A stretch of 64,000 bases of DNA from Candidatus Omnitrophota bacterium (GCA_022711115.1 JAKLFP010000005.1:136572-200571); one strand, 5' to 3'. Positions 6,971-64,000 are shown, numbered from the stretch's first letter. Numbers and translations are program-made. The notes: a model not told the origin generated them from the sequence alone.

Positions 6971-7426
6971 ATGAAGCTCATCACTCGAAACACAGATTAT
7001 GCGATGCGCGCACTTTGTTATATCGCGCAGCAAACAAAAGATTCGGTGCCTGTCACCGAAATGGTGAAGGATCTTGCTATCCCGCGCCCCTTTCTCAGGA
7101 AAATCCTTCAAACTCTAAGCGGTGAAGGGATGCTCGATTCCTACCGTGGACAGGGCGGTGGTTTCTCTCTCAGTCTTTCTCCCTCAAAAATTTTTATCAC
7201 GGATTTGATAAAAATTTTTCAGAATGCCATCCAACTTAATGAATGTATCTTTAAAAAAAAGATGTGCCCGAATCGTAAGACTTGTCTCATGAAAAGAGAG
7301 ATGGACTCTATTGAAAAAGATGTTTTGTTGCGACTGAGCCGTATCAGCATTGCTTCTTTGATTTCAAACGGGAACGGGAAGCGCTCAAATCGAGAAAGAA
7401 AAGAGGGGAGGTATGGTGAAGCTTAA
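6971..7426 (+). CDS. Rrf2-family transcriptional regulator with three Cys ligands (NsrR/IscR-like)
   Basis: The N-terminal helix-turn-helix region has the Rrf2 pattern (DYAMRALCYIA). A C-x7-C-x5-C cluster-ligand motif is present. Confidence 0.8.
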   Translation: MKLITRNTDYAMRALCYIAQQTKDSVPVTEMVKDLAIPRPFLRKILQTLSGEGMLDSYRGQGGGFSLSLSPSKIFITDLIKIFQNAIQLNECIFKKKMCPNRKTCLMKREMDSIEKDVLLRLSRISIASLISNGNGKRSNRERKEGRYGEA

Positions 7427-17707: not shown

Positions 17708-17716
17708 GAAAACGCT

Positions 17717-17757
17717 AAAGATCAAAGCCCGGTGTTAGAAGCCGGGCTTTGATCTTT
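17717..17757 (+). terminator. Intrinsic terminator after cspA
   Basis: A hairpin of about 16 bp pairs AAAGATCAAAGCCCGG with CCGGGCTTTGATCTTT. Confidence 0.7.
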
Positions 17758-17940
17758 ACAAAGACGTCGCAGTGCTTCCTTCCTTATCAAAAATTTTTGA
17801 GGAACCAAGGTGCTTTTTCATAGCCTTGTTTCGACAGGATTTTAAAAGCAACCAAGACTGCACTGATTTCCTTGTTTTATTTTTGGTTCACCAAAATCAG
17901 TGATGCCTTGGTTTTTTATTTATAAGGATTTTCTTACTTT

Positions 17941-31071: not shown

Positions 31072-31148
31072 AGGGAGCACTTGATAAAAACATGACGGAT
31101 GTCATGTTTTTAAGTGCGGGTGGCCGACCGAAGCGAAGCGGAGGCGCC

Positions 31149-36250: not shown

Positions 36251-38830
36251 ATGATGGTCAGTACCGGAGTCAAAGGTCTTGATAAGGTAATCACTGGGTT
36301 GCAATTGGGAGATAATGTTGTTTGGCAGATGGACGCCCCGGAACAATATAAGGATTTTGTCGATCCTTTTGTCAAGAAGGCGTTGGAAGAAAAAAGAAGG
36401 CTTGTCTATATCCGTTTCGCTAACCACGAGCCCCTTTTGAAGGAAGGAAAGGACATCACGGTCTATCGACTGGACCCTCATGTGGGCTTCGAGCCTTTTT
36501 CCGCGCAGATCAATCATATCGCCAAAAAAGAAGGGGAAGGGGTCTTCTATGTTTTTGACTGTCTGTCGGACCTGCTCTCTGCCTGGTCAAATGACCTGAT
36601 GATCGGTAATTTTTTTAAAATCACCTGTCCGTATCTTTTTGAACTTAATACGATCGCTTATTTTGGCCTCTTGCGCAGCCGTCACTCTTTTAAAACAGTG
36701 GCGCGTATTCGCGACACCACCCAACTGCTCATCGATCTGTATGATCACGACGGGGAATGTTACATCCATCTCCTGAAGGTCTGGAATCGTTACTCCCCGA
36801 CCATGTTCCTGCCGCATGTCAAAGTCAAGGATCGCTTCGTTCCGATTGCCAACAGCGCGGACACCGCAAAACTTTTCTCCCATCTGTTCAAGAAAGGGGC
36901 CAAATCCGTTAAAAGGAATTTTGATTATTGGGACATGCTTTTTTTTAAAGCGGAGGATCTCGATGCGAATAAAAAGGCTTCGCATGCGGAAAAAAGCCAG
37001 ATGCTGGACCAGCTTTGCAGGATTATTATTGTCCGGGATGAAAAGATCCAAAAGCTGGCGAAAGAAAATCTCACGCTGAAGGATTTTTTAGGCATCAAGG
37101 CAAGGATGATCGGAACGGGGTTTATCGGCGGGAAAACGGTGGGAATGTTGCTTGCGCGGAATATTCTGTTAAAAGAGAAGTCTCTGAAGGCGGAAAGATT
37201 TTTTGAGCCTCATGATTCTTTTTACGTCGGCGCGGATGTTTTTTACACTTATATTGTTGAGAACGGTTTGTGGAAAGAACATATGGCCCAAAGAACCAAA
37301 GAGGGTTATTTCGAGACGGCTCAAACGCTTCGGGGAAAATTGCTGGCCGGTATTTTCCCGGAGGAGATCAAGGAACAATTCCAGGAAATGATCGAATATT
37401 TTGGGCAGTCGCCGATCATTGTCCGTTCCAGCAGTTTGTTGGAGGATAGCTACGGCAATGCCTTTGCGGGAAAATACGAAAGTGTTTTTTTGGTCAACCA
37501 GGGAACTCCGGACGAACGGTATGCCAAATTTGTGGAAGCTGTCCGCCACATTTATGCCTCGACCATGAGTGAAGATGCCTTGGCCTACAGGTTACAGCGC
37601 GGGCTTGATCAATTGGACGAACAAATGGCGCTTCTCGTTCAAAGGGTCTCCGGATCCTATCATAAAGATTATTTTTTTCCGGACATGGCCGGTGTTGGCA
37701 TTTCCAAAAATGTTTTTGTCTGGAAAAACGGACTGGATTCCGATGCGGGGATGTTACGGTTGGTGCTTGGACTCGGAACCCGTGCTGTTAACAGGGTCGA
37801 AGGGGATTATCCCAGGATCGTGGCCCTGGATGAACCTTTATTGAAGGCTTATGCGGGCATGGCGGCGGAGCACAGGTTTTCCCAGCATGATGTGGATGTG
37901 CTGGATGTCAAAGAGAATGCTCTGCGGACAGTCTCTTTTCAAAAGCTTCTAAAGGAACAGGTCGATATGAGTTTAGAACTGGTCGCGATCAAAGATGAAG
38001 AGGTCGCCGAAAAGGCGGCGGCCATGGGCGCGGAAGAAGAATCCTGGATCATTAATTTTGACCCTCTTGTTTCCCAAACAAAATTCTGCGAGACCATGCA
38101 AAAGATTCTCAAGACACTGGAAAAGGCCTATGGATATCCTGTTGATATTGAATTCACAGTCAATTTTAAAAAAGGCAAAGAGTTCCAGGTAAATCTCCTC
38201 CAATGCCGGCCGATGCAGACCAAGGGTTTGGGACATCGCGTCAAAATCCCGGATGCGATCGCCAAGGAAAAAACGCTTTTCAAGTCAGAAGCGAATTTTC
38301 TCGGCGGGAATATTTCCCAGATTATTGACAGGATTATTTATGTGGATCCCAAGGGCTATTGCGGTCTGGATGCTCAGTCGGACCGTTATGAAATCGCGCG
38401 TGTGGTCGGGGAACTCAACCGGCAGATCGGCGGCCGGGAGAAGATGGCTGTCATGCTTTTAGGCCCGGGGAGATGGGGGACGACGACGCCGTCCTTGGGG
38501 GTTCCCGTGTCTTTTGCGGAAATCAATCACATTACAGTCCTCGGCGAGATTGCCTTTGTCACGGAAAATGCGGCTCCGGAGATTTCATTTGGGACGCACT
38601 TTTTCCAGGATCTCGTGGAGACGGGGATTTTTTATGTCGCCCTTTTCCCGGATAATCCCGGTGTTTATATTGACCAGAAATTCTTTGATGCGATCCCGAA
38701 AACCCTCCGGAAACTCGCGCCGCAATATAAAAAGTACGAGGACATCGTCAAGGTGTTCGATGTAAAGAAACAGGAGCTCAAGATTGCCGCGGACATTGTC
38801 TCCCAAAAACTAATCTGCTATTTTCAGTGA
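36251..38830 (+). CDS. PEP/pyruvate-binding (PPDK_N, ATP-grasp-type) domain protein with an N-terminal KaiC/RecA-like domain that lacks a Walker A motif
   Basis: The N-terminus STGVKGLDKVITGLQLGDNVV resembles KaiC but has no GxxxxGK[ST]. The central segment IVRSSSLLEDSYGNAFAGKYESV is the PPDK nucleotide-binding signature. No phospho-His swivel domain is recognisable. Confidence 0.65.
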   Translation: MMVSTGVKGLDKVITGLQLGDNVVWQMDAPEQYKDFVDPFVKKALEEKRRLVYIRFANHEPLLKEGKDITVYRLDPHVGFEPFSAQINHIAKKEGEGVFYVFDCLSDLLSAWSNDLMIGNFFKITCPYLFELNTIAYFGLLRSRHSFKTVARIRDTTQLLIDLYDHDGECYIHLLKVWNRYSPTMFLPHVKVKDRFVPIANSADTAKLFSHLFKKGAKSVKRNFDYWDMLFFKAEDLDANKKASHAEKSQMLDQLCRIIIVRDEKIQKLAKENLTLKDFLGIKARMIGTGFIGGKTVGMLLARNILLKEKSLKAERFFEPHDSFYVGADVFYTYIVENGLWKEHMAQRTKEGYFETAQTLRGKLLAGIFPEEIKEQFQEMIEYFGQSPIIVRSSSLLEDSYGNAFAGKYESVFLVNQGTPDERYAKFVEAVRHIYASTMSEDALAYRLQRGLDQLDEQMALLVQRVSGSYHKDYFFPDMAGVGISKNVFVWKNGLDSDAGMLRLVLGLGTRAVNRVEGDYPRIVALDEPLLKAYAGMAAEHRFSQHDVDVLDVKENALRTVSFQKLLKEQVDMSLELVAIKDEEVAEKAAAMGAEEESWIINFDPLVSQTKFCETMQKILKTLEKAYGYPVDIEFTVNFKKGKEFQVNLLQCRPMQTKGLGHRVKIPDAIAKEKTLFKSEANFLGGNISQIIDRIIYVDPKGYCGLDAQSDRYEIARVVGELNRQIGGREKMAVMLLGPGRWGTTTPSLGVPVSFAEINHITVLGEIAFVTENAAPEISFGTHFFQDLVETGIFYVALFPDNPGVYIDQKFFDAIPKTLRKLAPQYKKYEDIVKVFDVKKQELKIAADIVSQKLICYFQ

Positions 38831-38892
38831 AGTGTTTTTTCGGGTTAGTAAAATAGCAGAGCAAAACGGCTAGCTTTAAAGACAAGTACCCA

Positions 38893-44329: not shown

Positions 44330-44484
44330 AAGCGCCAAAGTAACAAAGTCACACGCCACAAGGCCACATGTAAAGAATTATTCTGTGGCGTGTGGCTTGA
44401 GTCATGTGGCGTTGGTTATTTGACACCCCTCGCTTCATCCTATAAGATACAGAAAATTCAAAGGTTGCGGAGAACTCTTTTAAA

Positions 44485-54598: not shown

Positions 54599-55498
54599 TT
54601 AAAGAACTTCTTCGTTGATTTCTTCGGCGGGATTTGCTGCTGTGCGATTCTTTCGGTGGGAAATAGTATCAACACCTGAACCATCGAGGATGCCGCGTTT
54701 GGATGCTTCAATAAAGGCCACCATATGCGCTACTTCTTTGCTCTTGAGATCCCGCTTGATCGTTTCCAAAGCCTGACTGACATTCATCCCTGAGCGGTAA
54801 AGGAGTTTGTAGGCTTCCTTGATCTCCATGCGGACCTCGGGGCCGATGCCCGCGCGTCTCAAGCCGACTACATTGATCCCCTGAGCGATCGCAGGACGCC
54901 CGCCGCAAATAACGTAGGGAGGAATATCTTTATTAATCGCTGAAAGGGCGCTGACCATGGCAAGCGTTCCGATGCGCGTGAATTGGTGGAACCCTGTCAT
55001 GCCGGAAAGGAACGCGCGATCCTCCACCTCACAATGGCCGGTCAGCGATGCCTGATTGACCATGATGATATGGCTGCCGAGATGGCAGTTGTGCGCGATA
55101 TGGCAGTAAGCCATAAAAAAATTCGAATCACCAATGATCGTAGCCGTACCTTCCTTGGTGCCGCGATGGATCGTGACAAACTCCCGGATTTCATTTTTAT
55201 TCCCGATTTTTGTGAAAGTTTCTTGTCCCTGGTAGGCCAGATCCTGAGGGGCATGGCCGAGCACGGCATTCATGTGGATTGTATTGTAATGACCGAGTTC
55301 GGTGCCCCGAGCGAGATAAGCGCCGGCCATGATCTTATTATGACCGCCGAGCTTCACCCCATCTTCAATAATGACATTGGGACCGATGGTGTTGTTAACC
55401 CCAATTTCGACGTTTTTACCGATTATGGCTGAAGCATGAATTTCTGACACGGTTCCAATCCCTTTCAATGTCTGCGAAGTGGCCCCCATACGGATCAA
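54599..55498 (-). CDS. lpxA: Acyl-ACP--UDP-N-acetylglucosamine O-acyltransferase
   Basis: The hexapeptide-repeat left-handed beta-helix is present, with a C-terminal helical domain. The catalytic His lies in MAYCHIAHNCHLG. Confidence 0.85.
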   Translation of the reverse strand: MIRMGATSQTLKGIGTVSEIHASAIIGKNVEIGVNNTIGPNVIIEDGVKLGGHNKIMAGAYLARGTELGHYNTIHMNAVLGHAPQDLAYQGQETFTKIGNKNEIREFVTIHRGTKEGTATIIGDSNFFMAYCHIAHNCHLGSHIIMVNQASLTGHCEVEDRAFLSGMTGFHQFTRIGTLAMVSALSAINKDIPPYVICGGRPAIAQGINVVGLRRAGIGPEVRMEIKEAYKLLYRSGMNVSQALETIKRDLKSKEVAHMVAFIEASKRGILDGSGVDTISHRKNRTAANPAEEINEEVL

Positions 55499-55885
55499 CT
55501 ATAAAAAAATCTAAAATTGTAATGGTCGGAATTATAACATAGGAGATAGCACGTAAAAAATACCTTTTTAACACTCAGTGCTAAATCGGGTTTATTGCCA
55601 CCCGAGGTCAATGTGTCGATTTTAATCCTTGGAGTTGTCAATAAGTGCTTCCAGAGGCTAAATGTTGCTATAAATGGCTATGGAGTATATCTCGATCTCA
55701 TAACCCGTTATAAAATAAGGTGTTGCAAACTAAAAAAAAGTAAAATAAATTGAATCCCTCTCTTGAAAAATCGAATCTCATCGAGTATATTTTCGCATAC
55801 TTTTTTTAAGCCTGAGAAAACACAAGAAAATCTATTTTGAAATCAGAAAAGAAAAACTCCCTTCACGTATAGAATGGATTACTGA

Positions 55886-58800
55886 ATGATTCGACAAAAA
55901 ACATTCAAATCGTTCATCGCGTCTTTCACGGCCTTTACTTTTTTCTTCACGAGTCTCGGTTTTAATGGTTCTCTTTTTGCCGCGGCGACCATGCCCGAAG
56001 TATCCCTGCCTTATCAGGCTGTTTTAGGCCAGAATATTCGCATTTCGCTTCCGCAAGATATCGGCAAAATCGAAAATTTGAAAATCGGAAAAAGCGGTCT
56101 TCCGGTTGTTTTCCACATTCAAACCGCGCACGGACACTATCAGGCCCAAAAACAAATCCAAGCCATTCTGAAACATTTGGATCAGAATTATGGCGTGAAG
56201 ACAGCGTTGGTCGAAGGCAGTGCTTTCAAGCTCAATCCGGAAATCCTGCGTTTCTTTCCTTCCGACATGGATCTGACCTTGAAGATTGCCGATGAACTCA
56301 CCAAGCAAGCGCTTGTCAAAGGCCCGGAGCTTTATCTGCTTGATTCCAAGGGCAGTCAGGCTTTCGGTATCGAAAAGGCCGAAGCCTATCGCGCAAACCG
56401 TGCGTCCTTTGTCGACGTTCTAGAAGAGCAGAAAAAAACAGGTCAGTTTCTCGCCGATATGAACATGAGTATCGAGCGCCTTTCAAGTCATTATCTGAGT
56501 AAAGACCTTCGCGATTTTCTCAAACGCCTTGAATCTTTCGAAAAGAACCAACTGCCGTTTGAGCAATGGCTTTCTTATCTTAAGGAGGAAGCCCAAAAAC
56601 GTCTGAATGTCGATTTGACGCAGACGGGTTATCAGGTCGAATGGCCGATGCTTGTCCGCCTTTTTAAGGTTCAAGAACTCTCTCGAAAACTAGATAAGCA
56701 GGCTTATCAGAAGGAAAAAGACTTGTTTCTCAAAGCCATCCGTTCTATTTCAAAAACCACTTATGCAGAGATTGAAGCACTTCTGAACAATCCCAATCTT
56801 GCCCGCCAGTTGCCGGATCCGGAAACCAGTCTTTTGTTCGAGGACATGGTTCGTCAACTGCCGCGTCAGTTTAATTATGAGGCCTTTCCGAATGTGCGCT
56901 ACTATGCCGGTTGTTTGATCCTTCAAAGCGAGATAAAGGCTGTAGGGCTTATGTCGGAGACCCAAAAGCTTACGGATCTTATCACTCGGAAACTGACCCG
57001 AAATAAAGAGGAACACAAGCTTTTAACCCTTTTAAAAGACCACCGTCTTCTTCAGAAACTGTTTGCTCTGGAGTTACTGCCCGCCGATTACGAACAAATC
57101 CTCGAACGGGGGATGACGGATGCCGGATGGAGCTTAAAACCCTCCGAACTTGTCAAACGCTTTAGCCCTGCTATTTTCCAACCTTCGTCCAATATCCGAA
57201 GAGTCAAAGATGTAGCATTTACCCACATCGCCGATCTCGACATCCTTTTCAACAAGGCTATGAAATTTTATAAAGGTGTCAAAATGCGCGATGCACTTAT
57301 GGAACAGATGATCGAACAGCGTCTCCAGGAGACAGGCGCCACGAAAGTCGCGGTCATCACCGGGGGCTTTCACTCCGGGCCTTTTCAGGATTATTTCTCG
57401 AATAAAGATTATACGTACGCGCTCATTTCTCCGAAGATTTCCGGGGCGGATGACAAGGGCCATGAGGCTTATATCCAGAACATGATCGATTTTACTTTTC
57501 ACCCGGTCAAAGCGGCTACCATTGAATCAGCATTTTCTGCCGATCTCGGGATGAATGAAACACAAGCCGCCTCGGTTGGTCTTTCTCTCAGAGTTGCCCG
57601 CACAGCATTTGTTTCTGCGGTACGTGAAATCGTCGCCCATGTGGCCCAAGATCACAAAGACGCCTTTGCCGTTCTCCGCGCGCATTTCAAGAAAGTATTC
57701 GAAACGGGAGAACTTGCCGCGGTGCCTCAAATGGTCCCGATCCCTTCGCCGGCCACAGCGCCTGTTTTGAATGCGCGGTCCGAAGTGCGGGCCGAAGCGA
57801 CTGAGAATATTGATTTGAAAAATGCGATTCTTTTAGCCCTTATCAGTCACCTTCAACTTGCGGATATCGATCGAAGACTTCTCGATACAGATATTGTGGA
57901 AGAAATCCAGGGTAAATTGACGCTCCCCGCACGGCGCTTGGACGCGTTGTTTCAGCGGCATAAAGGGCAGCCTATTTTGAATGTTCAGGGGGCACAGAGT
58001 GTGGCTCGAAGTTTTGATCTGTTTTTGAGACGAAAAGAGGAAGTGGATCTTTATAAGACGCAGTTTTTTGAAATCCCCAAAACAGCCTATGTCGTTGAAG
58101 TCAAAAGTAACCCTAAAAAACCGGTTGAACCCGATATTTTTGGTACGGATCAGGATGCCCTGCGAGAACAGATCAAATTTATTTCGATTCTTAACCATTT
58201 GACACAGCCCGGGAAACAAAATCTCTTCAACAAATTTCTCGGGCATCCTGATGTCCAATATTACAAGACGATTCGCAAGGTTCGCGAAATGTACAAGCAA
58301 AAAGAAGGTCGAGGGCAGAATGACCAACTTGTGATGGGAGAAATACCCACGCTTGCGACTTTTGACCTTTTCCGGCAAAGGCTAAAAGAAGTGCTCAAGG
58401 GTGAAGAGTTTCTTGCGGAGGATGATGTGAAATTCATCAATCGCTTGAAGGGCGAAATCGACCGATTCATCGATTTAAACGATCTCATGAGCGAACTCCT
58501 TCATCAGGCCATGGACCGCGATTCGATTTCCCGTGAAGATGCGAACATTCTTCTTTATTTGCAGCAGGTGGGGGTGGGGGTGGTCAGCGAAGAAGTCGCT
58601 CAGGCAATCAAGAGCGATACCCATTATGTTAGTCTCGGCGCTTATAAGTATGGGTTGCAATATAACCCTGGCCGTGCTAAACGGAGCGGACTTTTTAAAG
58701 GGCATATGGTGGGAAGGCAAACGGAAACGATTGTGGCAGAGTCTTATGTCAATGATTTCCTCCCGCTTCAACGGCATCTGCGTGCCGGTAAAGCCGATGC

Positions 58801-61800
58801 CGGACTTCGCATCAGGGAACTTGCCAATCCCTATCCGCATAAATTTGCCAGCCGTAATACGGTTTTTGATCCGATTCAGCCCCAGGTCGTAAATCTTGAA
58901 GACCTGGAAAGTTTGTTGCGCAATCTGAGAGAAAGTACACCCTCCGGTGAACCGACGCGGTACCGCGGATTTTTTAACGGGCCATTCGCTGGTTTTACCA
59001 TCCCGCATCTTCATTATCAAGGTTTTCTCGGTGAAACCAAGATGGAAGAAGCCTTGAAGCAGGAGGGCGCGCTGGAACTGTTGGGTGTCGATAAAAACAA
59101 TATTAAACATTTCCGTCTTAATAATGAATTTTTTAAAGACAAAGCCCAATTTCCGTTGCGTTCCACCATAGTCATTGAAGGAAGAGATCCTGAGGCTACG
59201 GCGCAAGCGGTCATTGAAATTTTGAAATTAGCTAATGACAAAGAAAAACTAGGCAAAAAGAAAAAGTCCCTTCCCATTACCAAAGAATCTCTTTTTACCT
59301 ACAATATTCTTTTTTCTGATAATGGCGAATTTTCTCGCGTCTATGTGATGATGAATCGCATTGTGCTTGATCCGCTGAATCCTCCCGGAAGCCTTACGGA
59401 AAGGAATACACTCGTCTATTCTAATAAGGAAGAGCATAAGGAAAGAGTCAAAGCATTAAAAAGCGAATTGAAAAAAATCCGCCAGAAATTTCCGCCACTC
59501 TGGAAAAAACATGGGCAAATTGAGGGGAAGGCAGAGAAAGAGGCGTATCTAAAACAAGAGATCGAACCCTTGCAGAAAGAATACGGTAAAAAAGTCACGG
59601 AGGCTATCAAGGAAACCGTCATTCTCTTTCAAGGAAGACCTGCTAGCGTGGAGATGACCGATCTTCTGATCTTCGGGGATCCCAACCAGGAAAAAAGTTT
59701 TAAGACGATCCTGGAAAGCGCGGATTTACAACGGTACGTGATTGATGAAGTTTTTAACGAGAGGGTGTATCCGGATTTTGAAGACTTAATTAAAAAAGTG
59801 CAAGCTTCCTTGACATCTGGAGCTGTTCGTTCCGAGGTACGTTCACCCGATCAAATCCGGGGATTGCCAACCCTGGCAATACCCGGATTTGCCAAGGGTC
59901 GCTCGGAGGCGCACAGCAGTCTCCGCACTGAGAGTGACAAAGCCACCGTACGTGCTGAGATGAGGGCTGATGAAAGCCGTAACAAGAGACCTTTCCAGGT
60001 CGTAAAATATTTAGAGGCCGTGACAGAGGGAGGAAGCGTCACTTCTCCGGAATCTCAACCATTTCATGGTCAGGTGGGAGCCCGACCGGATGCGCCCTCG
60101 GTGCATTTAAGCAATCGACAGATTGCAGGCGCAGTCGGAAAAATGAGAAAAACTTCTGGTCGTTCGGAAGCGCGAAACGAGAGTAAATGGCATGAATTGC
60201 AGAGACAAATACAAGCTGTGGTTGATGCCCGTGAGGCAGTCATCAAGGGCCTGCAAGATGATCATCATCAGGCCGTTGCTGCTTTGCATCGTGAACTTCC
60301 GGGTAAAGAAAATGCCACTGCTCGTGCTTTGCGTATCGAACTCATGCATGAAGATCTTGAAAAGGCCGTCCACAAAATTAATCACGATGCTGGACGTCAG
60401 ATCGAAAAGCTGAATGTGCGGCAACGGCAACTTTCCGACTCCCGCTCCGAAGTAAGGAGCGCGGTATGGCCCAAGGATTCGGTTATTTTGAAATCCCAAT
60501 ATGAAACTTTGACACCCCCGCAACAAGAGGTGGTAAGGCAAGTGACGGAATTGCTTGATAGTGCTGGCAGTCATGTCGCAAGGTATAAACCGACCGTGAA
60601 ATATGCCGAGTTGACGGGTGGCAGCCAGACTTTTCGCGATTGGCGGGATATCCATCCAGGTGAATGGGATCTTAATGAAATTTTGGCGGGGATTCCTCTT
60701 GAGGCGGACTGGCAGCGAAATCTTATAGCGGAACATTTTTTTGATGCTTTTCGCAGGGGTTATGACCGGACGAAATCAGGAGTCATGAGCCGGGCACGCG
60801 GTTTGATTTTATTTCAGATTCAACGTCAGCCGGATGTGGAGCCGGATGCTTCCGTGACGACAACCGTTTTTCGCTATTTTAAAGACGTGCTTCCCGTTGC
60901 TAGCGATCTTCACCGGAAAATAAGTCATCAGGAGACATGGTTAAAACGAATGGGAGGTTCCGAGCTTTATCATTTGATCGTTCTCATTGAGCCGGATCCC
61001 ATGGTGCCGTATGTTGACGCCAATCGGTATGCCGGCATTTTACATGTCCTGGCATTGGGCAAAAAGGCTGCTGAAAAACTTCAATCGCTTTTGACAAATA
61101 ATCCCGAAGCTCTTCCCTATGCGCTTCGTAATAGCACAAGAACGGCTTTTAAAAATACTTATGAGGGATTTGTCAGGCCGACGTTGGACGCCGCCGGATT
61201 TTACAGGCCTTTGAATGTCGAAGACACTGCCCAACGCGATTTCGTCATTGCCCAGACAGATCAGCCTGCCCGCTCGGAGGCACGTAGTAGCCTCAGCACT
61301 GAAAACACCACGGGTGCTGTACGTGCCGAGCTGAGGGATGCTGGCAAACTTGCTATTGAACTTTCCATTTTGTCAGGGCTTCTTTATCCCGAGGAAAACC
61401 GAAAACCGGCAGGTTTTCAGAATACCCGGCTTTTGAGCCAGCTTAATGCGCCATTATTTGGCGGAATTCTTTTTGAGACTTTGAGAATTGTGGATCAGGA
61501 GATCGCAAAAGGGTCTGACGCGAAAGGATCCGCGGCGTGGAGAAAAATAAAAGCTGCTTATACAAAAGAACTAAAACAAACCATCAACCGGGAAAACAGG
61601 TCAAACCGGCTATTATCGGATCATCAAGCCGCGGATTTTTTAAGACGTTTTACGGCCGATCTTGCGACTGCCAGGATCTTTGCCCGCTCGGAGGCACGTA
61701 GTAGCCTTCGCACTGAGAGCACCACGGGTGCCGTACGTGCCGAGGTGAGGGGCATGGAGGTTGTCAAGGATGGTGTTCCGCTCCGTTCCGAAGTACGGAG

Positions 61801-64000
61801 TTGGGATGCTGAAATCATGAAGCAATTCAAAGCGATGTTTAGCAGAATGCTTGGCGCCAATTTGCCGGTTGGAACAGATATCACTATGCATACGCGCCTG
61901 AGGGAAGATCTGGGGATGGATGCGGATGGTTCGACAGACGATTTCAGCTTCTTTTTGCCCGATGCACTTGTGGGCACATTTAATCTTAACGTTCCGCAAA
62001 GTGAAATAAACCGCTGGCAGACGGTGGGCGATGTTTTCAACTATGTCAAAGGTCAACTTATCCGCTCTGGGGTGAGGCATAGAGGGTTATTGCCGGAACC
62101 GTGGCAGCGGATTACTCATGAATCGTTAGACAAGATCCGGCCAGGAACGGTTATTTATCATTGGATCGGATCACGGAGCACATTTGAATATTTAGGCCGT
62201 TCCGCGGACGAAAAGTTCTGGCTGATTGCGTTAAATCAAGATAGGCAGAGGATGCAGGGCGCTCGGCCCGTTGCAGTGGAAAGTCGCGAATTGATAGGGG
62301 GGTCTTTCTTGCAGACTGGCCTTTCCCGTTCCGAAACAGAGACCGGAGTTTGGGTTCCTTTAGATGCAGATAAAAAGGGAGCCTTGATTATTCCAAAGGG
62401 CAGTCGTGTGCGGAAGGGAGAAAGAGAGTACACGGTTACCGAACGGATTGCATCCGGCGCATCCGGGAAAGTGGAGTTCACTTATGGCTTAAAGGAGTAT
62501 CCGGCCACTTCGAGGCCGACAACCGCTCTTGGGTTGACGGAGATGGTGAGGGCTGGCTACGAGCTTTTCATTCCTTTTGTAAATGTTGAAGAGCTAAAAA
62601 CTTCGGAAGTCATTCATTCCGAGGTGCGGATTACCGGATCAAAACCCGGTTTTGAATCTCGCGGCCCCGAAGCCGAAAACCGGGTTTTGGATTCCCGCTC
62701 CGAGGTGAGGACTGCAGGACCGACGTTCCAGGGAGTGAATCTTTTTAAGGTGGTTTTTGGAAATTCAGCAAACACAAATTTGGCAATATTGCAGGAAGCC
62801 GTCAAAAAAAATTCGCCCCAAAGTCCCCAAATAAGCAAGGCAATACATGACGTAGCTCCATCGGTTTCCAAGAGAAAATTGCCGCTTCCTTCCGGAAATT
62901 TGACAGCATTCTCATTTGATGACGGGGTTCTTGAGCGGGTTTATGTTGCGGCCGATAAAGGGCAGCTAACGATTACTCAAATACTCGAATCGATTCTCAT
63001 GCCCGAGTCGAATAAATCGATGGTCTTGCAAGTCAGTAACAAGGGCGCGTTGCTTACTTTTTACCGGGTTGAGGGCGAATCGCCGATGGTGCAGCCGTTT
63101 TTCAAAAAGCTGAATCTTGCTTTGATTCGGGAAGTGGAAGTAATACCTGCACAGCCGGGCGGGTATCCTTCGATGATCTTAAAGACCTCACGGAGGCAAA
63201 GTCCTGAACTTCAAAGGTGGATCACCGCATTTCAACAGGCGCAGCGACAGGACGATTTCAGGGTGAGCGTGCTGATCCAGGCTGTGCAATCCACGCGACG
63301 TTCCGAGGCGCGAATTATCGGATCAAAACCCGGTTTTGAATCTCGCGGCCCCGAAGCCGAAAACCGGGTTTTGGATTCCCGCTCCGAGGTGAGGGCCATG
63401 GAAGAAGTCAGGGTCCTTGTTGCCGATAAGCCGGAAAGCGGGATGGCGGGATTAGAGAAGCTTATTGAAGGGTTTGGAAAAAACGCGAAGCTTGTGGGGC
63501 TTGCGGGGGTCGGTAAAGATGAAGCTCAACTCCGCAAGACGATTGAAGAAAACCATCCGACGATCGTGACAATCCGCGGTGTGACGAAGGCTTTCAAAAA
63601 CCCTGAATTTGTAAAATGGGCGGGCACGCAGGGCGTCCGCGCCATCATCCGCTACGGCGCCGGTGTTGACAATGTGGACCAACCTGCTGCAAAAGAAGCG
63701 GGCATCTCGGTCATCCCGACGTTTGGCAACGCCAACTCCGTCGCTAATTTTTCACTCCGTTTTTTAATCGCCGCTTTGAATCTCTCGGAACCGGAAGAAC
63801 AGGGGCCTGTGAAGGATCTTTCGGTAGAGGATCAATGGAAAGATGTTCTGGATGTGCCGTTGAGCGACATTGAGCAGGCGCTGGCAAGTTCGCTTGCAAA
63901 AGGCCGCGGAGAAATGATCAGCGGGCATCAGCAAAAAGTTTTCCGGGCGATTTCCGGCGAACGTTTGATCGCTCTTGTAAAAAAACTTGAAGGTAAAACG
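55886..64000 (+). CDS. Giant multidomain ORF (more than 2700 codons, 3' end beyond the window). It has an N-terminal signal peptide, recurring R-S-E-[V/A]-R linker motifs, a carrier-protein-like module near 61800-62050 and a D-2-hydroxyacid-dehydrogenase-like module from 63398
   Basis: I translated codon by codon from ATG 55886 to 64000 and found no in-frame stop. An in-frame TGA lies immediately upstream. Every minus-strand ORF in this span is short. The carrier-like domain reads ...REDLGMDADGSTDDFSFF.... The terminal domain reads MEEVRVLVAD...RYGAGVDNVD...AKEAGI.V..T.G.NA.SVA. Confidence 0.75.
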   Translation, partial: MIRQKTFKSFIASFTAFTFFFTSLGFNGSLFAAATMPEVSLPYQAVLGQNIRISLPQDIGKIENLKIGKSGLPVVFHIQTAHGHYQAQKQIQAILKHLDQNYGVKTALVEGSAFKLNPEILRFFPSDMDLTLKIADELTKQALVKGPELYLLDSKGSQAFGIEKAEAYRANRASFVDVLEEQKKTGQFLADMNMSIERLSSHYLSKDLRDFLKRLESFEKNQLPFEQWLSYLKEEAQKRLNVDLTQTGYQVEWPMLVRLFKVQELSRKLDKQAYQKEKDLFLKAIRSISKTTYAEIEALLNNPNLARQLPDPETSLLFEDMVRQLPRQFNYEAFPNVRYYAGCLILQSEIKAVGLMSETQKLTDLITRKLTRNKEEHKLLTLLKDHRLLQKLFALELLPADYEQILERGMTDAGWSLKPSELVKRFSPAIFQPSSNIRRVKDVAFTHIADLDILFNKAMKFYKGVKMRDALMEQMIEQRLQETGATKVAVITGGFHSGPFQDYFSNKDYTYALISPKISGADDKGHEAYIQNMIDFTFHPVKAATIESAFSADLGMNETQAASVGLSLRVARTAFVSAVREIVAHVAQDHKDAFAVLRAHFKKVFETGELAAVPQMVPIPSPATAPVLNARSEVRAEATENIDLKNAILLALISHLQLADIDRRLLDTDIVEEIQGKLTLPARRLDALFQRHKGQPILNVQGAQSVARSFDLFLRRKEEVDLYKTQFFEIPKTAYVVEVKSNPKKPVEPDIFGTDQDALREQIKFISILNHLTQPGKQNLFNKFLGHPDVQYYKTIRKVREMYKQKEGRGQNDQLVMGEIPTLATFDLFRQRLKEVLKGEEFLAEDDVKFINRLKGEIDRFIDLNDLMSELLHQAMDRDSISREDANILLYLQQVGVGVVSEEVAQAIKSDTHYVSLGAYKYGLQYNPGRAKRSGLFKGHMVGRQTETIVAESYVNDFLPLQRHLRAGKADAGLRIRELANPYPHKFASRNTVFDPIQPQVVNLEDLESLLRNLRESTPSGEPTRYRGFFNGPFAGFTIPHLHYQGFLGETKMEEALKQEGALELLGVDKNNIKHFRLNNEFFKDKAQFPLRSTIVIEGRDPEATAQAVIEILKLANDKEKLGKKKKSLPITKESLFTYNILFSDNGEFSRVYVMMNRIVLDPLNPPGSLTERNTLVYSNKEEHKERVKALKSELKKIRQKFPPLWKKHGQIEGKAEKEAYLKQEIEPLQKEYGKKVTEAIKETVILFQGRPASVEMTDLLIFGDPNQEKSFKTILESADLQRYVIDEVFNERVYPDFEDLIKKVQASLTSGAVRSEVRSPDQIRGLPTLAIPGFAKGRSEAHSSLRTESDKATVRAEMRADESRNKRPFQVVKYLEAVTEGGSVTSPESQPFHGQVGARPDAPSVHLSNRQIAGAVGKMRKTSGRSEARNESKWHELQRQIQAVVDAREAVIKGLQDDHHQAVAALHRELPGKENATARALRIELMHEDLEKAVHKINHDAGRQIEKLNVRQRQLSDSRSEVRSAVWPKDSVILKSQYETLTPPQQEVVRQVTELLDSAGSHVARYKPTVKYAELTGGSQTFRDWRDIHPGEWDLNEILAGIPLEADWQRNLIAEHFFDAFRRGYDRTKSGVMSRARGLILFQIQRQPDVEPDASVTTTVFRYFKDVLPVASDLHRKISHQETWLKRMGGSELYHLIVLIEPDPMVPYVDANRYAGILHVLALGKKAAEKLQSLLTNNPEALPYALRNSTRTAFKNTYEGFVRPTLDAAGFYRPLNVEDTAQRDFVIAQTDQPARSEARSSLSTENTTGAVRAELRDAGKLAIELSILSGLLYPEENRKPAGFQNTRLLSQLNAPLFGGILFETLRIVDQEIAKGSDAKGSAAWRKIKAAYTKELKQTINRENRSNRLLSDHQAADFLRRFTADLATARIFARSEARSSLRTESTTGAVRAEVRGMEVVKDGVPLRSEVRSWDAEIMKQFKAMFSRMLGANLPVGTDITMHTRLREDLGMDADGSTDDFSFFLPDALVGTFNLNVPQSEINRWQTVGDVFNYVKGQLIRSGVRHRGLLPEPWQRITHESLDKIRPGTVIYHWIGSRSTFEYLGRSADEKFWLIALNQDRQRMQGARPVAVESRELIGGSFLQTGLSRSETETGVWVPLDADKKGALIIPKGSRVRKGEREYTVTERIASGASGKVEFTYGLKEYPATSRPTTALGLTEMVRAGYELFIPFVNVEELKTSEVIHSEVRITGSKPGFESRGPEAENRVLDSRSEVRTAGPTFQGVNLFKVVFGNSANTNLAILQEAVKKNSPQSPQISKAIHDVAPSVSKRKLPLPSGNLTAFSFDDGVLERVYVAADKGQLTITQILESILMPESNKSMVLQVSNKGALLTFYRVEGESPMVQPFFKKLNLALIREVEVIPAQPGGYPSMILKTSRRQSPELQRWITAFQQAQRQDDFRVSVLIQAVQSTRRSEARIIGSKPGFESRGPEAENRVLDSRSEVRAMEEVRVLVADKPESGMAGLEKLIEGFGKNAKLVGLAGVGKDEAQLRKTIEENHPTIVTIRGVTKAFKNPEFVKWAGTQGVRAIIRYGAGVDNVDQPAAKEAGISVIPTFGNANSVANFSLRFLIAALNLSEPEEQGPVKDLSVEDQWKDVLDVPLSDIEQALASSLAKGRGEMISGHQQKVFRAISGERLIALVKKLEGKT
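59900..59965. repeat. 66-nt in-frame repeat unit (encodes RSEA[HR]SSL[RS]TE...VRAE[MLV]R), divergent copy A
   Basis: It begins CGCTCGGAGGCRCA and ends GTACGTGCYGAGNTGAGG. It has a terminal inverted repeat in which GGCACGTA pairs with TACGTGCC. Confidence 0.7.
61271..61336. repeat. 66-nt in-frame repeat unit, copy B
   Basis: It is about 90% identical to copy C at 61685-61750. Confidence 0.75.
61685..61750. repeat. 66-nt in-frame repeat unit, copy C
   Basis: It is about 90% identical to copy B. It is followed 35 nt later by another RSEVR word at 61783. Confidence 0.75.
62617..62710. repeat. 94-nt in-frame palindromic repeat unit, copy 1 (direct repeats of CCGAGGTG[C/A]GG flank an inverted repeat made of AAAACCCGGTTTT and AAAACCGGGTTTT)
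   Basis: Its 3' 72 nt are identical to copy 2 at 63301-63394. It encodes SEVRITGSKPGFESRGPEAENRVLDSRSEVR. Confidence 0.8.
63301..63394. repeat. 94-nt in-frame palindromic repeat unit, copy 2
   Basis: It is near-identical to 62617-62710 and immediately precedes the Met of the dehydrogenase-like module. Confidence 0.8.

Follow-up and report, generated by a model that had tools for sequence, protein, structure and literature searches.

Introduction

Rickettsia palindromic elements (RPEs), which comprise about ten families, are short palindromic DNA segments that lie in frame inside protein-coding genes and add a peptide without breaking the open reading frame (ORF) (PMC10969869). In the present work, we have analysed a stretch of 64,000 nt (hereafter the window), in which two 94-nt units resemble RPEs in that they are in-frame palindromes which keep the ORF open and belong to a type of segment present in some homologues and absent from others; as hairpin-forming units they also agree with the palindromes expected of such elements (roughly 100–150 bp, stable hairpin). 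RPEs have many copies dispersed in unrelated genes and intergenic regions, whereas only two copies of the unit are seen in the 64-kb window, both in one gene; related giant genes bear their own unrelated palindromes, the spread here looks intragenic, and on either side of the units stands a motif conserved in the family, RSE[VA]R.

MITEs share with the units a small size, inverted repeats and short flanking direct repeats, but the perfect inverted repeat of the units lies inside them, with about 23 nt between it and the direct repeats, and not at the ends, the unit edges beside the flanking words showing weak pairing only (GCGG/CCGC). The would-be target-site duplication is a conserved, family-wide peptide-coding word that also stands alone about 200 times, and its right-hand copy at unit 2 coincides with an ancestral module boundary; neither a parent IS/transposase (30 window ORFs scanned) nor dispersed copies were found. 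PARCELs, like the units, are dyad-symmetric DNA that codes for repeats inside genes and undergoes shuffling in the genome; they are, however, tandem arrays of a conserved 25-residue amphipathic motif, whereas the units are single, dispersed in the gene, unrelated between genes and located between enzyme modules. REP and BIME sequences are extragenic and multi-copy, while both copies of the unit are intragenic and the intergenic hairpins of the window are unrelated to them in sequence.

Integron attC sites, which stand between functional cassettes, are imperfect palindromes whose geometry is conserved and whose sequence varies, and the succession of unit, enclosed module and unit resembles a cassette between recombination sites. 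The units differ from attC sites in lying within one continuous reading frame and in being flanked by words that are direct, not inverted, repeats; no core site (GTTRRRY / RYYYAAC) was noticed by eye at the stem base, and a Pfam scan of 30 window ORFs detected neither an integrase nor a recombinase domain. Quasipalindrome or template-switch mutagenesis creates and perfects hairpins, and it would explain the perfect strand-symmetric stems, the inverted copies of the neighbouring word and the two-sided "compensatory" changes without G-U intermediates that are described below. It differs from the other systems in being a mutational process and not an element, and to our knowledge it has not been described as a source of in-frame architectures that recur where a protein motif is conserved.

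The giant proteins of Omnitrophota are a recent puzzle, and missing information on their cleavage points blocks their analysis (preprint 10.1101/2023.11.21.568195). Full-text literature searches found no paper describing the RSEVR motif or palindromic inserts in Omnitrophota, and in-frame DNA palindromes between SEVR words across a giant protein family appear to be undescribed.

Results and Discussion

Two palindromic units in a giant multi-module ORF

Both units are located in an ORF that runs for at least 2,705 codons without a stop; at its N-terminus are a signal/TM segment and a conserved domain (about 550 aa), which are followed by modules separated by RSE[VA]R words. Its homologues are 1,500–4,700 aa in length and the named ones are labelled Candidatus Omnitrophota; the host of the gene is probably an uncultured Omnitrophota bacterium. 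The features of this region are as follows.

55886..64000, + strand: giant multi-module ORF, running off the window end
62615..62629, + strand: left word of unit 1, CAT TCC GAG GTG CGG (HSEVR)
62617..62710, + strand: palindromic unit 1, reading (H)SEVR-ITGSKPGFESRGPEAENRVLDS-RSEVR
62640..62689, unstranded: core hairpin of unit 1, arms 62640-62653 / 62676-62689
62662-62665 / 62672-62675: inner stem of the unit 1 core hairpin
62696..62710, + strand: right word of unit 1, CGC TCC GAG GTG AGG (RSEVR)
62711..63298, + strand: module X, about 196 aa, enclosed by units 1 and 2
63299..63313, + strand: left word of unit 2, CGT TCC GAG GCG CGA (RSEAR)
63301..63394, + strand: palindromic unit 2, reading (R)SEAR-IIGSKPGFESRGPEAENRVLDS-RSEVR
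63324..63373, unstranded: core hairpin of unit 2, arms 63324-63337 / 63360-63373
63380..63394, + strand: right word of unit 2, CGC TCC GAG GTG AGG (RSEVR)
63395..64000, + strand: start of a D-2-hydroxyacid / phosphoglycerate dehydrogenase-like module (PF00389 match), directly after unit 2

The preliminary description of this DNA had reported two near-identical palindromic units inserted in frame, and our analyses bear this out: the units are identical at 91 of 94 positions (97%) and both are in frame, without a stop, in the same + strand ORF. The mismatches are restricted to unit positions 9, 13 and 18, all at the 5′ edge, so that the long shared stretch noted earlier is 76 bases and not 72; similarly, the perfect 14-bp stem holds good, while its loop is 22 nt and not about 27. 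Each unit is laid out in DNA as TCCGAGG(T/C)G-[72-nt palindromic insert]-TCCGAGGTG and the shared translation is (H/R)SE(V/A)R-I(T/I)GSKPGFESRGPEAENRVLDS-RSEVR, the encoded peptide (32 aa) lying between modules and being rich in Gly, Pro, Ser, Glu and Arg. Taken by itself, the succession TCCGAGGTG-[72-nt palindrome]-TCCGAGGTG also has the look of a 9-bp target-site duplication, an appearance that runs counter to the reading preferred below.

Module X has no Pfam match and no homologue of it was found. The dehydrogenase-like module that follows unit 2 is 46% identical (BLASTP) to residues 920–1126 of P0012, a homologue whose gene is syntenic with the giant ORF (both have an LpxA-like gene upstream on the - strand) and in which a lone RSEVR, with no unit, opens the same module. 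The alignment begins exactly at the right-hand SEVR of unit 2, and the right word of unit 2 (63380..63394) is, judging from this comparison, an old, ancestral module boundary.

The RSE[VA]R word

Supposing that the units are mobile palindromic elements, SEVR had been interpreted earlier as their footprint or terminal repeat, in a layout like that of a target-site duplication, and not as a selected protein feature; the distribution of the word contradicts this, SEVR being neither a footprint nor a target-site duplication. RSE[VA]R occurs 208 times in 119 homologues, where 1.05 occurrences are expected, and 58 of the 119 carry at least one; the giant ORF contains 11, the other + strand frames of the window none. 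The words in homologues are mostly solitary and situated at module boundaries, and while module architectures vary greatly across homologues, modules start at RSEVR. Because the codons drift across homologues (AGY serine and AGR arginine included), the words are usually solitary and the solitary words show no excess structure (mean z -0.29 vs -0.26 in controls), RSE[VA]R is a selected protein feature. It is, on this evidence, a short conserved peptide by which modules are delimited in giant, multi-enzyme Omnitrophota proteins (1.5–5 thousand residues) that form a large family, not an insertion scar, and it may serve as a processing or recognition site. The RSE-coding word itself has dyad symmetry (CTC-S-GAG or TTC-S-GAA), and its TCC and TCG forms are mutual reverse complements.

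The palindrome as a feature of the nucleic acid

Each unit contains a perfect 14-bp inverted repeat (CAAAACCCGGTTTT / AAAACCGGGTTTTG), with a further 4-bp stem (CGGC/GCCG) in the 22-nt loop between its arms. As each 13-nt arm forms an odd palindrome of its own (AAAACC-S-GGTTTT), the arms match as direct repeats too, at 12 of 13 positions. If perfect inverted repeats are counted whose arms have at least 11 bp and whose loop does not exceed 45 nt, the window contains seven, compared with 1.07 expected from Markov-1 simulations, and the unit palindromes are therefore beyond chance; the remaining five lie between ORFs, and the strong intragenic hairpins of the window are found only in the giant ORF. 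Folded as DNA, the unit core has z = -3.8 and none of 200 shuffles folds as well; the full 94-nt unit folded as RNA (MFE -39 kcal/mol) is less extreme, with z = -2.3 and -1.4.

An ordinary duplicated protein linker, in which the 32-aa peptide is selected and the DNA palindrome is incidental, would suit the in-frame position of the units between modules, their composition, which is like that of a flexible linker, and the intragenic repeats that giant proteins commonly hold. However, synonymous resampling of the unit peptide gave a perfect inverted repeat of at most 10 bp in 1000 trials, against 14 bp observed, which indicates that the palindrome is made by codon choice and not by the peptide; in addition, the peptide has no homologue among 5.8 billion proteins, and analogous spacers in other genomes have structure in common but not peptide sequence. 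A selected linker is thus very improbable, and the unit palindrome is a feature at the level of the nucleic acid, not of the protein.

Further palindromes within the giant ORF

Several other palindromes and repeats are associated with the word in the same ORF.

59828..59917, + strand: third palindromic spacer, unrelated to units 1 and 2, RSEVR-SPDQIRGLPTLAIPGFAKG-RSEAH
59896..59966, + strand: second intragenic unit family, copy 1, RSEA[RH]-SSLRTE...-RAE[VLM]R
61267..61337, + strand: second intragenic unit family, copy 2
61681..61751, + strand: second intragenic unit family, copy 3, 92% identical to copy 2
62603..62622, unstranded: small hairpin directly upstream of unit 1

The third spacer contains an 18-nt inverted repeat (59852-59869 / 59874-59891), its two words, one in the TCC and one in the TCG form, pair together, and its folding is pronounced (z = -5.0; as DNA z = -7.4). 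The second unit family consists of the word and an inverted copy of it. In the small hairpin, which has a 6-pair stem (terminator scan, - strand), TCGGAAG (TSEV), an inverted, TCG-form copy of the word, pairs with TTCCGA of the left word of unit 1.

Copy number and mobility

The layout of the units, their two copies of 97% identity, the single RSEVR at the orthologous P0012 boundary, which is like an empty site, and the presence or absence of in-frame palindromic insertions among homologues could all be produced by a non-autonomous MITE/RPE-like element that depends on a transposase acting in trans, inserts specifically at the RSEVR-coding word and in doing so doubles about 9 bp of it (TCCGAGGTG). 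We consider such an element unlikely, as the flanking word is the conserved motif that so often stands alone, and several further results speak against it. No other copy of the 94-nt unit was found in the remaining 56 kb of the window, in GTDB (one genome per species) or in JGI metagenomes (wobble-tolerant pattern included), and Pfam detected no transposase domain in the 30 largest of the 49 other window ORFs of at least 120 aa. Each giant gene has its own unrelated palindromes and not a single shared family, and in L108, a related 26-kb locus of three adjacent genes, 13 repeat pairs are intragenic and one lies between genes, the units remaining within one gene. Of the earlier proposal of an RPE-like element, the in-frame nucleic-acid palindrome is upheld, and genome-wide mobility, by which RPEs are characterised, was not detected in the sequence and collections searched; in the best reading, the resemblance of the units to RPEs lies in the outcome. 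The confinement to one gene refers to these 64 kb and to public collections from which this organism is seemingly absent.

Palindromes in homologous genes

A palindrome set between two RSEVR words is found again in homologous giant genes from other metagenomes, where the sequences are unrelated. For 26 short segments between RSEVR-type words in 13 genes, the mean z is -2.68 vs -0.03 for 78 matched controls, and 54% of the segments vs 1% of the controls have z below -3 (Mann-Whitney p = 8e-8); these genes are from different metagenomes and their palindromes are unrelated in sequence. Where two delimiters stand close together, the DNA that separates them is usually palindromic, with an arbitrary sequence; spacers without structure are seen in L019 (at 624) and L023 (at 654 and 1286). 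Inverted copies of the word adjoin the word in L034, L072, L099, L038 and L024 as well as in the window's second unit family, and in L038 (at 2707) the Glu codon of the motif is sacrificed and the pairing kept.

The in-frame palindromic segments are inserted in some homologues and missing in others, the kind of presence/absence variation that the preliminary description proposed to look for. In some lineages they interrupt even the conserved N-terminal domain; four of the seven such lineage-specific inserts that were folded have z of -2.8 to -5.1, and inspection of the sequences by eye found no evident flanking duplications, which is a further point against a mobile element. Dispersed repeats of 50–115 nt are common within these giant genes.

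Compensatory changes, which had been raised earlier as a mark of a conserved hairpin, are present in five homologous 60-nt units from four metagenomic contigs: 9 of 17 pairs are changed on both sides with the hairpin kept, and two helices are retained (91.8% of cells paired; 0 of 500 shuffles reach the observed values), the structure being derived from the same five sequences. All changes in this set are two-sided Watson-Crick changes with no G-U intermediates. G-U pairs in stems are about equally frequent in the sense (45/675) and antisense (44/682) orientations, and the antisense folds slightly better. The two-sided changes could mean selection on structure and not a mutational by-product, which would count against the reading preferred below.

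A selected structural element, whose function resides in the hairpin, is a possibility that we regard as tentative and well short of even. In mRNA, it would cause ribosome pausing at module borders or RNase processing or protection; in single-stranded DNA, recombination would take place at it, as at attC sites, and module cassettes would be shuffled in frame; the flanking RSEVR sites would allow the translated "junk" peptide to be trimmed. This explanation draws on the strong hairpin enrichment between close RSEVR words, the helices maintained in the 60-nt units, the pairing kept at the expense of the motif in L038, the greatly differing module architectures with modules beginning at RSEVR, and the succession unit - module X - unit, which looks like a cassette with hybrid flanking sites. 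It is weakened by the sense/antisense symmetry in G-U pairs and energy and by the consideration that two-sided Watson-Crick changes without G-U intermediates are also expected from palindrome-correcting template switching. Moreover, structure is missing between several RSEVR pairs, the covariation set comprises few sequences and its structure was derived from them, no integrase or recombinase domain was detected in the scanned ORFs, and a search of positions 55000-64000 against Rfam 15 (E up to 1) gave as its sole match a sub-threshold miRNA model elsewhere in the ORF.

A cassette system of giant Omnitrophota polyproteins that combines both levels, in which RSE[VA]R words and palindromic spacers form a DNA-level module-moving site and a protein-level RSEVR cleavage site, appears to us decidedly doubtful. 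The quasi-palindromic word and the hairpin would then act as an attC-like or fold-back recombination site through which enzyme modules would be moved in frame within and between giant genes; the modules would be freed through cleavage at RSEVR, carried out by a partner enzyme or by the hydrolase domain (Ere/ChaN/TraB/TIKI-like) that is conserved at the N-terminus, and the hairpin-encoded spacer would be discarded.

Proposed origin and significance of the units

The analyses establish the repeat and its palindrome and show that the motif is a protein feature, that such palindromes recur across the family and differ in presence between homologues, and that, in the sequence available, the units are confined to one gene. 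The best explanation, with about an even chance in our estimation, is that the units are 72–94-nt palindromic DNA-level linker cassettes between RSE[VA]R words that have been propagated locally within the gene. They would be members of a wider class of palindromes, inserted in frame, that originate in giant genes and spread there locally, are translated as short, probably disordered spacers, and would be tolerated because they are located in linkers or loops. The process would start from the dyad-symmetric word, of which the gene has many copies; where copying folds back or switches strands beside a word, inverted copies and hence palindromes would result, and recombination or gene conversion between words would duplicate blocks of word and spacer in frame. 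Units 1 and 2, which are 97% identical and differ at the 5′ edge, would stem from one recent intragenic duplication. The generation of the palindromes, their toleration and the role of RSEVR are inferred.

Should the palindromes have come about as by-products when strands were switched at a quasi-palindromic coding word, they would offer a clear example from nature of how hairpins are born within genes; as functional sites, they could account for the in-frame shuffling of modules in giant genes. In both cases, the range of RPE-like palindromes lying in frame is widened from Rickettsia to another phylum and to another way of spreading.

The units do not have the form of an intrinsic (rho-independent) terminator, with its G+C-rich stem, short loop and U run; a consensus scan calls neither of them (loop 22 nt, tail GGAUUCC), and the region has about as many terminator-like sites as chance would give (12 vs 11.7). 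The arm sequence AAAACCCGG...CCGGGTTTT is found in 17 unrelated genomes with differing loop lengths, and these occurrences are possibly terminators.

Two palindromic units in a giant multi-module gene

The two 94-nt units are located within a giant multi-module gene whose stop-free frame starts at 55886 and continues beyond the end of the window, and the preliminary description was right that both preserve the reading frame, as they lie in frame in this single forward-strand ORF of at least 2,705 codons. Their near-identity is also borne out (91 of 94 positions), and the long identical run reported between them is present, although it comprises the last 76 bases instead of 72, with mismatches at unit positions 9, 13, and 18. 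Each unit contains the perfect 14-bp inverted repeat that had been noticed (CAAAACCCGGTTTT / AAAACCGGGTTTTG), but the enclosed loop is 22 nt and not about 27 nt; within this loop there is an inner 4-bp stem (CGGC/GCCG). The units encode the peptide (H/R)SE(V/A)R-I(T/I)GSKPGFESRGPEAENRVLDS-RSEVR.

Features of the window discussed in the text (z, folding z-score against shuffles)
55886 to past 64000, + strand: giant multi-module ORF
62617-62710, + strand: palindromic unit 1
62711-63298, + strand: module X, between the units
63301-63394, + strand: palindromic unit 2
59828-59917, + strand ORF: unrelated hairpin between RSEVR (59831) and RSEAH (59903), z = -5.0 as RNA and -7.4 as DNA
59896-59966, 61267-61337, 61681-61751, + strand ORF: three-copy unit family (RSEARSSLRTE...VRAEVR), word paired with its own inverted copy
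57779, 59831, 60164, 60446, 61274, 61688, 61787, 62618, 62699, 63302, 63383, + strand: word sites (first base of the Ser codon)
7186-7219, 17716-17758, 31085-31112, 38814-38860, 44350-44394, between ORFs: perfect inverted repeats of 11-17 bp, likely transcription terminators

The palindrome of the units exceeds chance: in the window, 7 inverted repeats are perfect over 11 bp or more and have a loop of no more than 45 nt, compared with 1.07 expected. The remaining five are found between ORFs, and the only strong intragenic hairpins in the 64 kb (at 59852, 62640, and 63324) are all in the giant ORF. Folded as DNA, the core of the unit has z = -3.8, with equal folding in none of 200 shuffles, and the entire 94-nt units folded as RNA are less extreme (z = -2.3 and -1.4). 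Synonymous resampling of the 32-aa unit peptide with the codon usage of the window (1000 trials) yielded a maximum inverted repeat of 10 bp vs. the 14 bp observed; the palindrome is a feature of the nucleic acid. The units were also considered as intrinsic terminators, a reading rejected because the terminator scan calls neither of them, and a search of Rfam gave no match for either. The inverted repeat at 17716 and the unit core both contain GATCAAA(G/A)CCCGG, a degree of sharing to be expected by chance.

The flanking word is a peptide motif that delimits modules

The SEVR-coding word that brackets the units had been suggested to be, if the units are mobile elements, their footprint or terminal repeat, in a layout like that of a target-site duplication. 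The word is not such a scar: RSE[VA]R is a protein motif, with 208 sites in 119 homologues of the giant protein (58 of which carry it) vs. an expectation of 1.05 from composition. In the window, SE[VA]R is found 11 times in the giant ORF and not at all in the other forward-strand frames. In the homologues the flanks of the motif are unrelated; the preceding residue is preferentially S, A, P, or G and the following one A, S, E, T, or G. Among 56 word sites in eight genes, Ser is encoded by TCC, TCG, TCT, TCA, AGT, and AGC, and Arg by CGN or AGR, and this drift of the codons, which retains a bias toward CGY-TCC-GAA-GYG-CGG, is the pattern expected of selection on the peptide. Informal tallies over the same 56 sites gave no sign of third-base covariation of the first Arg codon with the Val/Ala or Glu codon. 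A hairpin in every word was likewise rejected, since solitary words have no excess of structure (mean z -0.29 vs. -0.26 for controls).

Comparison with P0012, a homologous protein whose gene is syntenic with that of the window because an LpxA-like gene lies upstream on the reverse strand in both, bears on the age of the word. In BLASTP the N-terminal domains of the two proteins align, as do their dehydrogenase modules, the latter alignment beginning exactly at SEVR (window residue 2499, corresponding to 63383, and P0012 residue 920; 46% identity). At this boundary P0012 has a single RSEVR without a palindromic unit, and hence the word on the right of unit 2 is an old one. RSE[VA]R is a family-wide delimiter between the modules of giant Omnitrophota proteins and could serve for processing or recognition. 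The cleavage points of giant Omnitrophota proteins are stated to be unknown in a preprint (10.1101/2023.11.21.568195), and full-text searches found no paper describing the motif.

The word can also resemble a Shine-Dalgarno sequence, as GGAGGTGA is contained within TCG GAG GTG AGG. As a general explanation of the word this was rejected, because the homologues mostly have TCC GAA GTG CGG (GAA 38 vs. GAG 18), but the resemblance may matter locally at 63386-63400. At 63386-63402 and 61742-61758 the word takes the form GAGGTGAGG, which comes close to a perfect Shine-Dalgarno sequence and is followed, 5 nt on, by an in-frame ATG. The ATG at 63398 begins MEEVRVLVAD, which resembles the N-terminus native to SerA-type dehydrogenases; this may reflect internal initiation or be the relic of a gene fusion.

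Palindromes in the gene family

Hairpins between neighboring words are not confined to the two units. The unrelated hairpin at 59828-59917 is built on an 18-nt inverted repeat (59852-59869 / 59874-59891), and in homologous genes from other metagenomes hairpins of unrelated sequence occupy the segments between close RSEVR-type words; examples from the loci of these genes are L018 6008-6122 (z = -7.4), L024 (-5.4), L034 (-5.5), L038 (-4.2), and L099 (-3.9). For 26 such segments from 13 genes the mean z is -2.68, compared with -0.03 for 78 length-matched controls taken from the same genes, and z is below -3 in 54% of the segments vs. 1% of the controls (Mann-Whitney p = 8e-8). Palindromes between close words are general in the family. 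The first 30 nt of the three-copy family (CGCTCGGAGGCRCGTAGTAGCCTYCGCACT) match by eye at 28 of 30 positions in L109 (encoding P0015), around residues 1301-1327; this locus comes from a different metagenome, and its N-terminal domain is about 50% identical to that of the window protein.

The suspicion that in-frame palindromic segments behave as inserts, being gained or lost among homologues, was confirmed in the N-terminal domain. An alignment of the window protein with 14 homologues revealed several lineage-specific insertions that most of the aligned homologues, and also the window protein, lack. Seven were folded, and the four with the strongest z, two each from L018 and L019, are clearly palindromic. 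These palindromic inserts have no RSEVR flank. The loop after LYLLD bears differing insertions in three lineages, those of P0005, P0011, and P0073.

Folded insertions in the N-terminal domain of homologous genes
L018 nt 1243-1377 (locus 2243-2377): z -5.1
L019 nt 436-570 (locus 1436-1570): z -4.5
L019 nt 922-1026 (locus 1922-2026): z -4.2
L018 nt 613-708 (locus 1613-1708): z -2.8
L023 nt 445-612 (about locus 1460-1576) and 973-1062 (about 1979-2035): weaker, z -0.9 and -1.4
L018 nt 865-939: weaker, z within -0.9 to -1.4

A check for conservation of the hairpin through compensatory changes had also been suggested. Elsewhere in the family, four metagenomic contigs supply five 60-nt units that are homologous to one another; two helices are kept in them (91.8% of cells paired) and both sides have changed in 9 of 17 pairs, the set being small and the structure derived from those very sequences. 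The observed values were reached by none of 500 shuffles, and slid controls were 29-51% paired. Every change in this set is two-sided Watson-Crick, without G-U intermediates. The main rival explanation, which is possible, is that selection maintains the hairpins as sites, be it for the shuffling of modules by recombination or as RNA elements. Against the latter form stands the symmetry of the strands: in 20 structured units G-U pairs make up 45 of 675 pairs in the sense and 44 of 682 in the antisense strand, and total folding is slightly better for the antisense strand. A palindrome at the DNA level, produced through inverted copying or through correction of the palindrome, agrees better with this symmetry than does an mRNA structure for which a single strand was tuned; the symmetry is also compatible with a possible function as single-stranded DNA.

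The units are probably propagated locally

The 94-nt unit and its core, for which copies elsewhere had been anticipated, are absent from the other 56 kb of the window. The hairpin-arm pattern, searched in one genome per GTDB species, gave 17 matches, none labelled Omnitrophota and none with the loop length of the units, which were taken for possible terminators. A wobble-tolerant back-translation of the spacer peptide PGFESRGPEAENR had no match in JGI metagenomes, and unit 1, module X, and unit 2, used together as a protein query, had none among 5.8 billion proteins. For the source genome itself these negatives are weak, because the collections apparently do not include the source organism; the best relative in them has 52-57% identity, in the N-terminal domain only. 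A scan of metagenomes for RSEVR pairs yielded mostly unrelated repeats in DNA of 0.57-0.75 G+C, giant ORFs (G+C 0.46-0.53) accounting for 5 of 83 loci. The pattern also matched an element of about 83 nt with a stop in that frame ('RSEARAR*TPARRRVRTTDGQARGRSEAR'; L029, L049, L064, L075, L090, and L100), which recurs in several unrelated soil metagenomes (G+C 0.62-0.65) and probably represents a repeat of G+C-rich bacteria with no relation to the units.

Inside the genes of the family, dispersed repeats of 50-115 nt are frequent. One example is L108 (26 kb of JAZDJU010000098.1, GCA_043803685.1), where 13 repeat pairs are intragenic and 1 lies between genes. This locus has three adjacent head-to-tail called genes, encoding a cut product of about 1,003 aa, P0005 (4,251 aa), and a 5,358-aa hexokinase-bearing protein; the latter two contain RSE[VA]R motifs, and two of the three genes are family members. 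Repeats of 40-115 nt (peptide GRRMADG...SSSILHP) are dispersed as a network through the middle gene (P0005), which also has a palindrome family (GGCGGATGG...CCATCC); its neighbor lacks both.

The likeness to Rickettsia palindromic elements (RPEs) in the preliminary description holds for the outcome, whereas the units differ from RPEs in lacking a dispersed multi-copy distribution, and from MITEs in lacking a genuine target-site duplication. The units are most aptly viewed as linker cassettes, palindromic at the DNA level and lying in frame between conserved RSE[VA]R delimiters, that have propagated locally.

A possible origin lies in the dyad symmetry of the RSE codons (CTC-C-GAG has the reverse complement CTC-G-GAG, and TTC-C-GAA has TTC-G-GAA). 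Due to this symmetry TCC and TCG words pair, as those of the 59831 unit do, inverted copies of the word occur beside words (in L034, L072, L099, L038, L024, L109, and the three-copy family of the window), and a small inverted word precedes unit 1 (62603-62622). In frame, the inverted word reads FGTG/LGTG, SLR, or ELR, and the 'SSLR' of the three-copy family is such a reading. We suggest that the repeated quasi-palindromic word may nucleate fold-back or strand-switch copying, which would create palindromes, and that recombination between the many words would duplicate blocks of word plus spacer in frame.

The giant gene and its surroundings

The search of 5.8 billion proteins identified 119 relatives of the giant protein, every one of 1,500-4,700 residues, and almost all of the named ones are labelled Candidatus Omnitrophota; the giant protein is probably from an Omnitrophota bacterium. 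The region common to the query and its relatives is limited to the N-terminal ~550 residues (17-25% coverage), and beyond it the module set differs from relative to relative (viz. UGPase, phosphoglucomutase, hexokinase, acetate kinase, glutamate dehydrogenase, PEP-utilising enzymes, response regulators, HEAT repeats, and others). Outside the giant ORF the window is ordinary chromosome, with genes for a PAS histidine kinase, photolyase, PTS enzyme I, hybrid-cluster protein, NadA, IlvD, BipA, the Suf system, PGM, TrpRS, ScpA, PheA, S1, and LpxA, and a Pfam scan of 30 window ORFs detected neither a transposase nor an integrase domain.

The N-terminal domain, which we call Ere/ChaN/TraB/TIKI-like, has conserved His residues (HIQTAHGHY, GGFH), and a profile search with it against PDB sequences gave no match. 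The proteins considered for a possible role of RSEVR are HopBA1, 2rad, 2qgm, EreC (an erythromycin esterase), a TraB-family protein, and ChaN, and they are compatible with RSEVR processing of the giant protein; 2rad and 2qgm are structures annotated 'succinoglycan biosynthesis protein' and are erythromycin-esterase homologues. In the second module of the giant ORF, the region 58900-59060, which has no Pfam match at E up to 0.01, contains FTIPHLHYQGF, which we take to resemble an HxHxQ motif of the GalT/HIT type.
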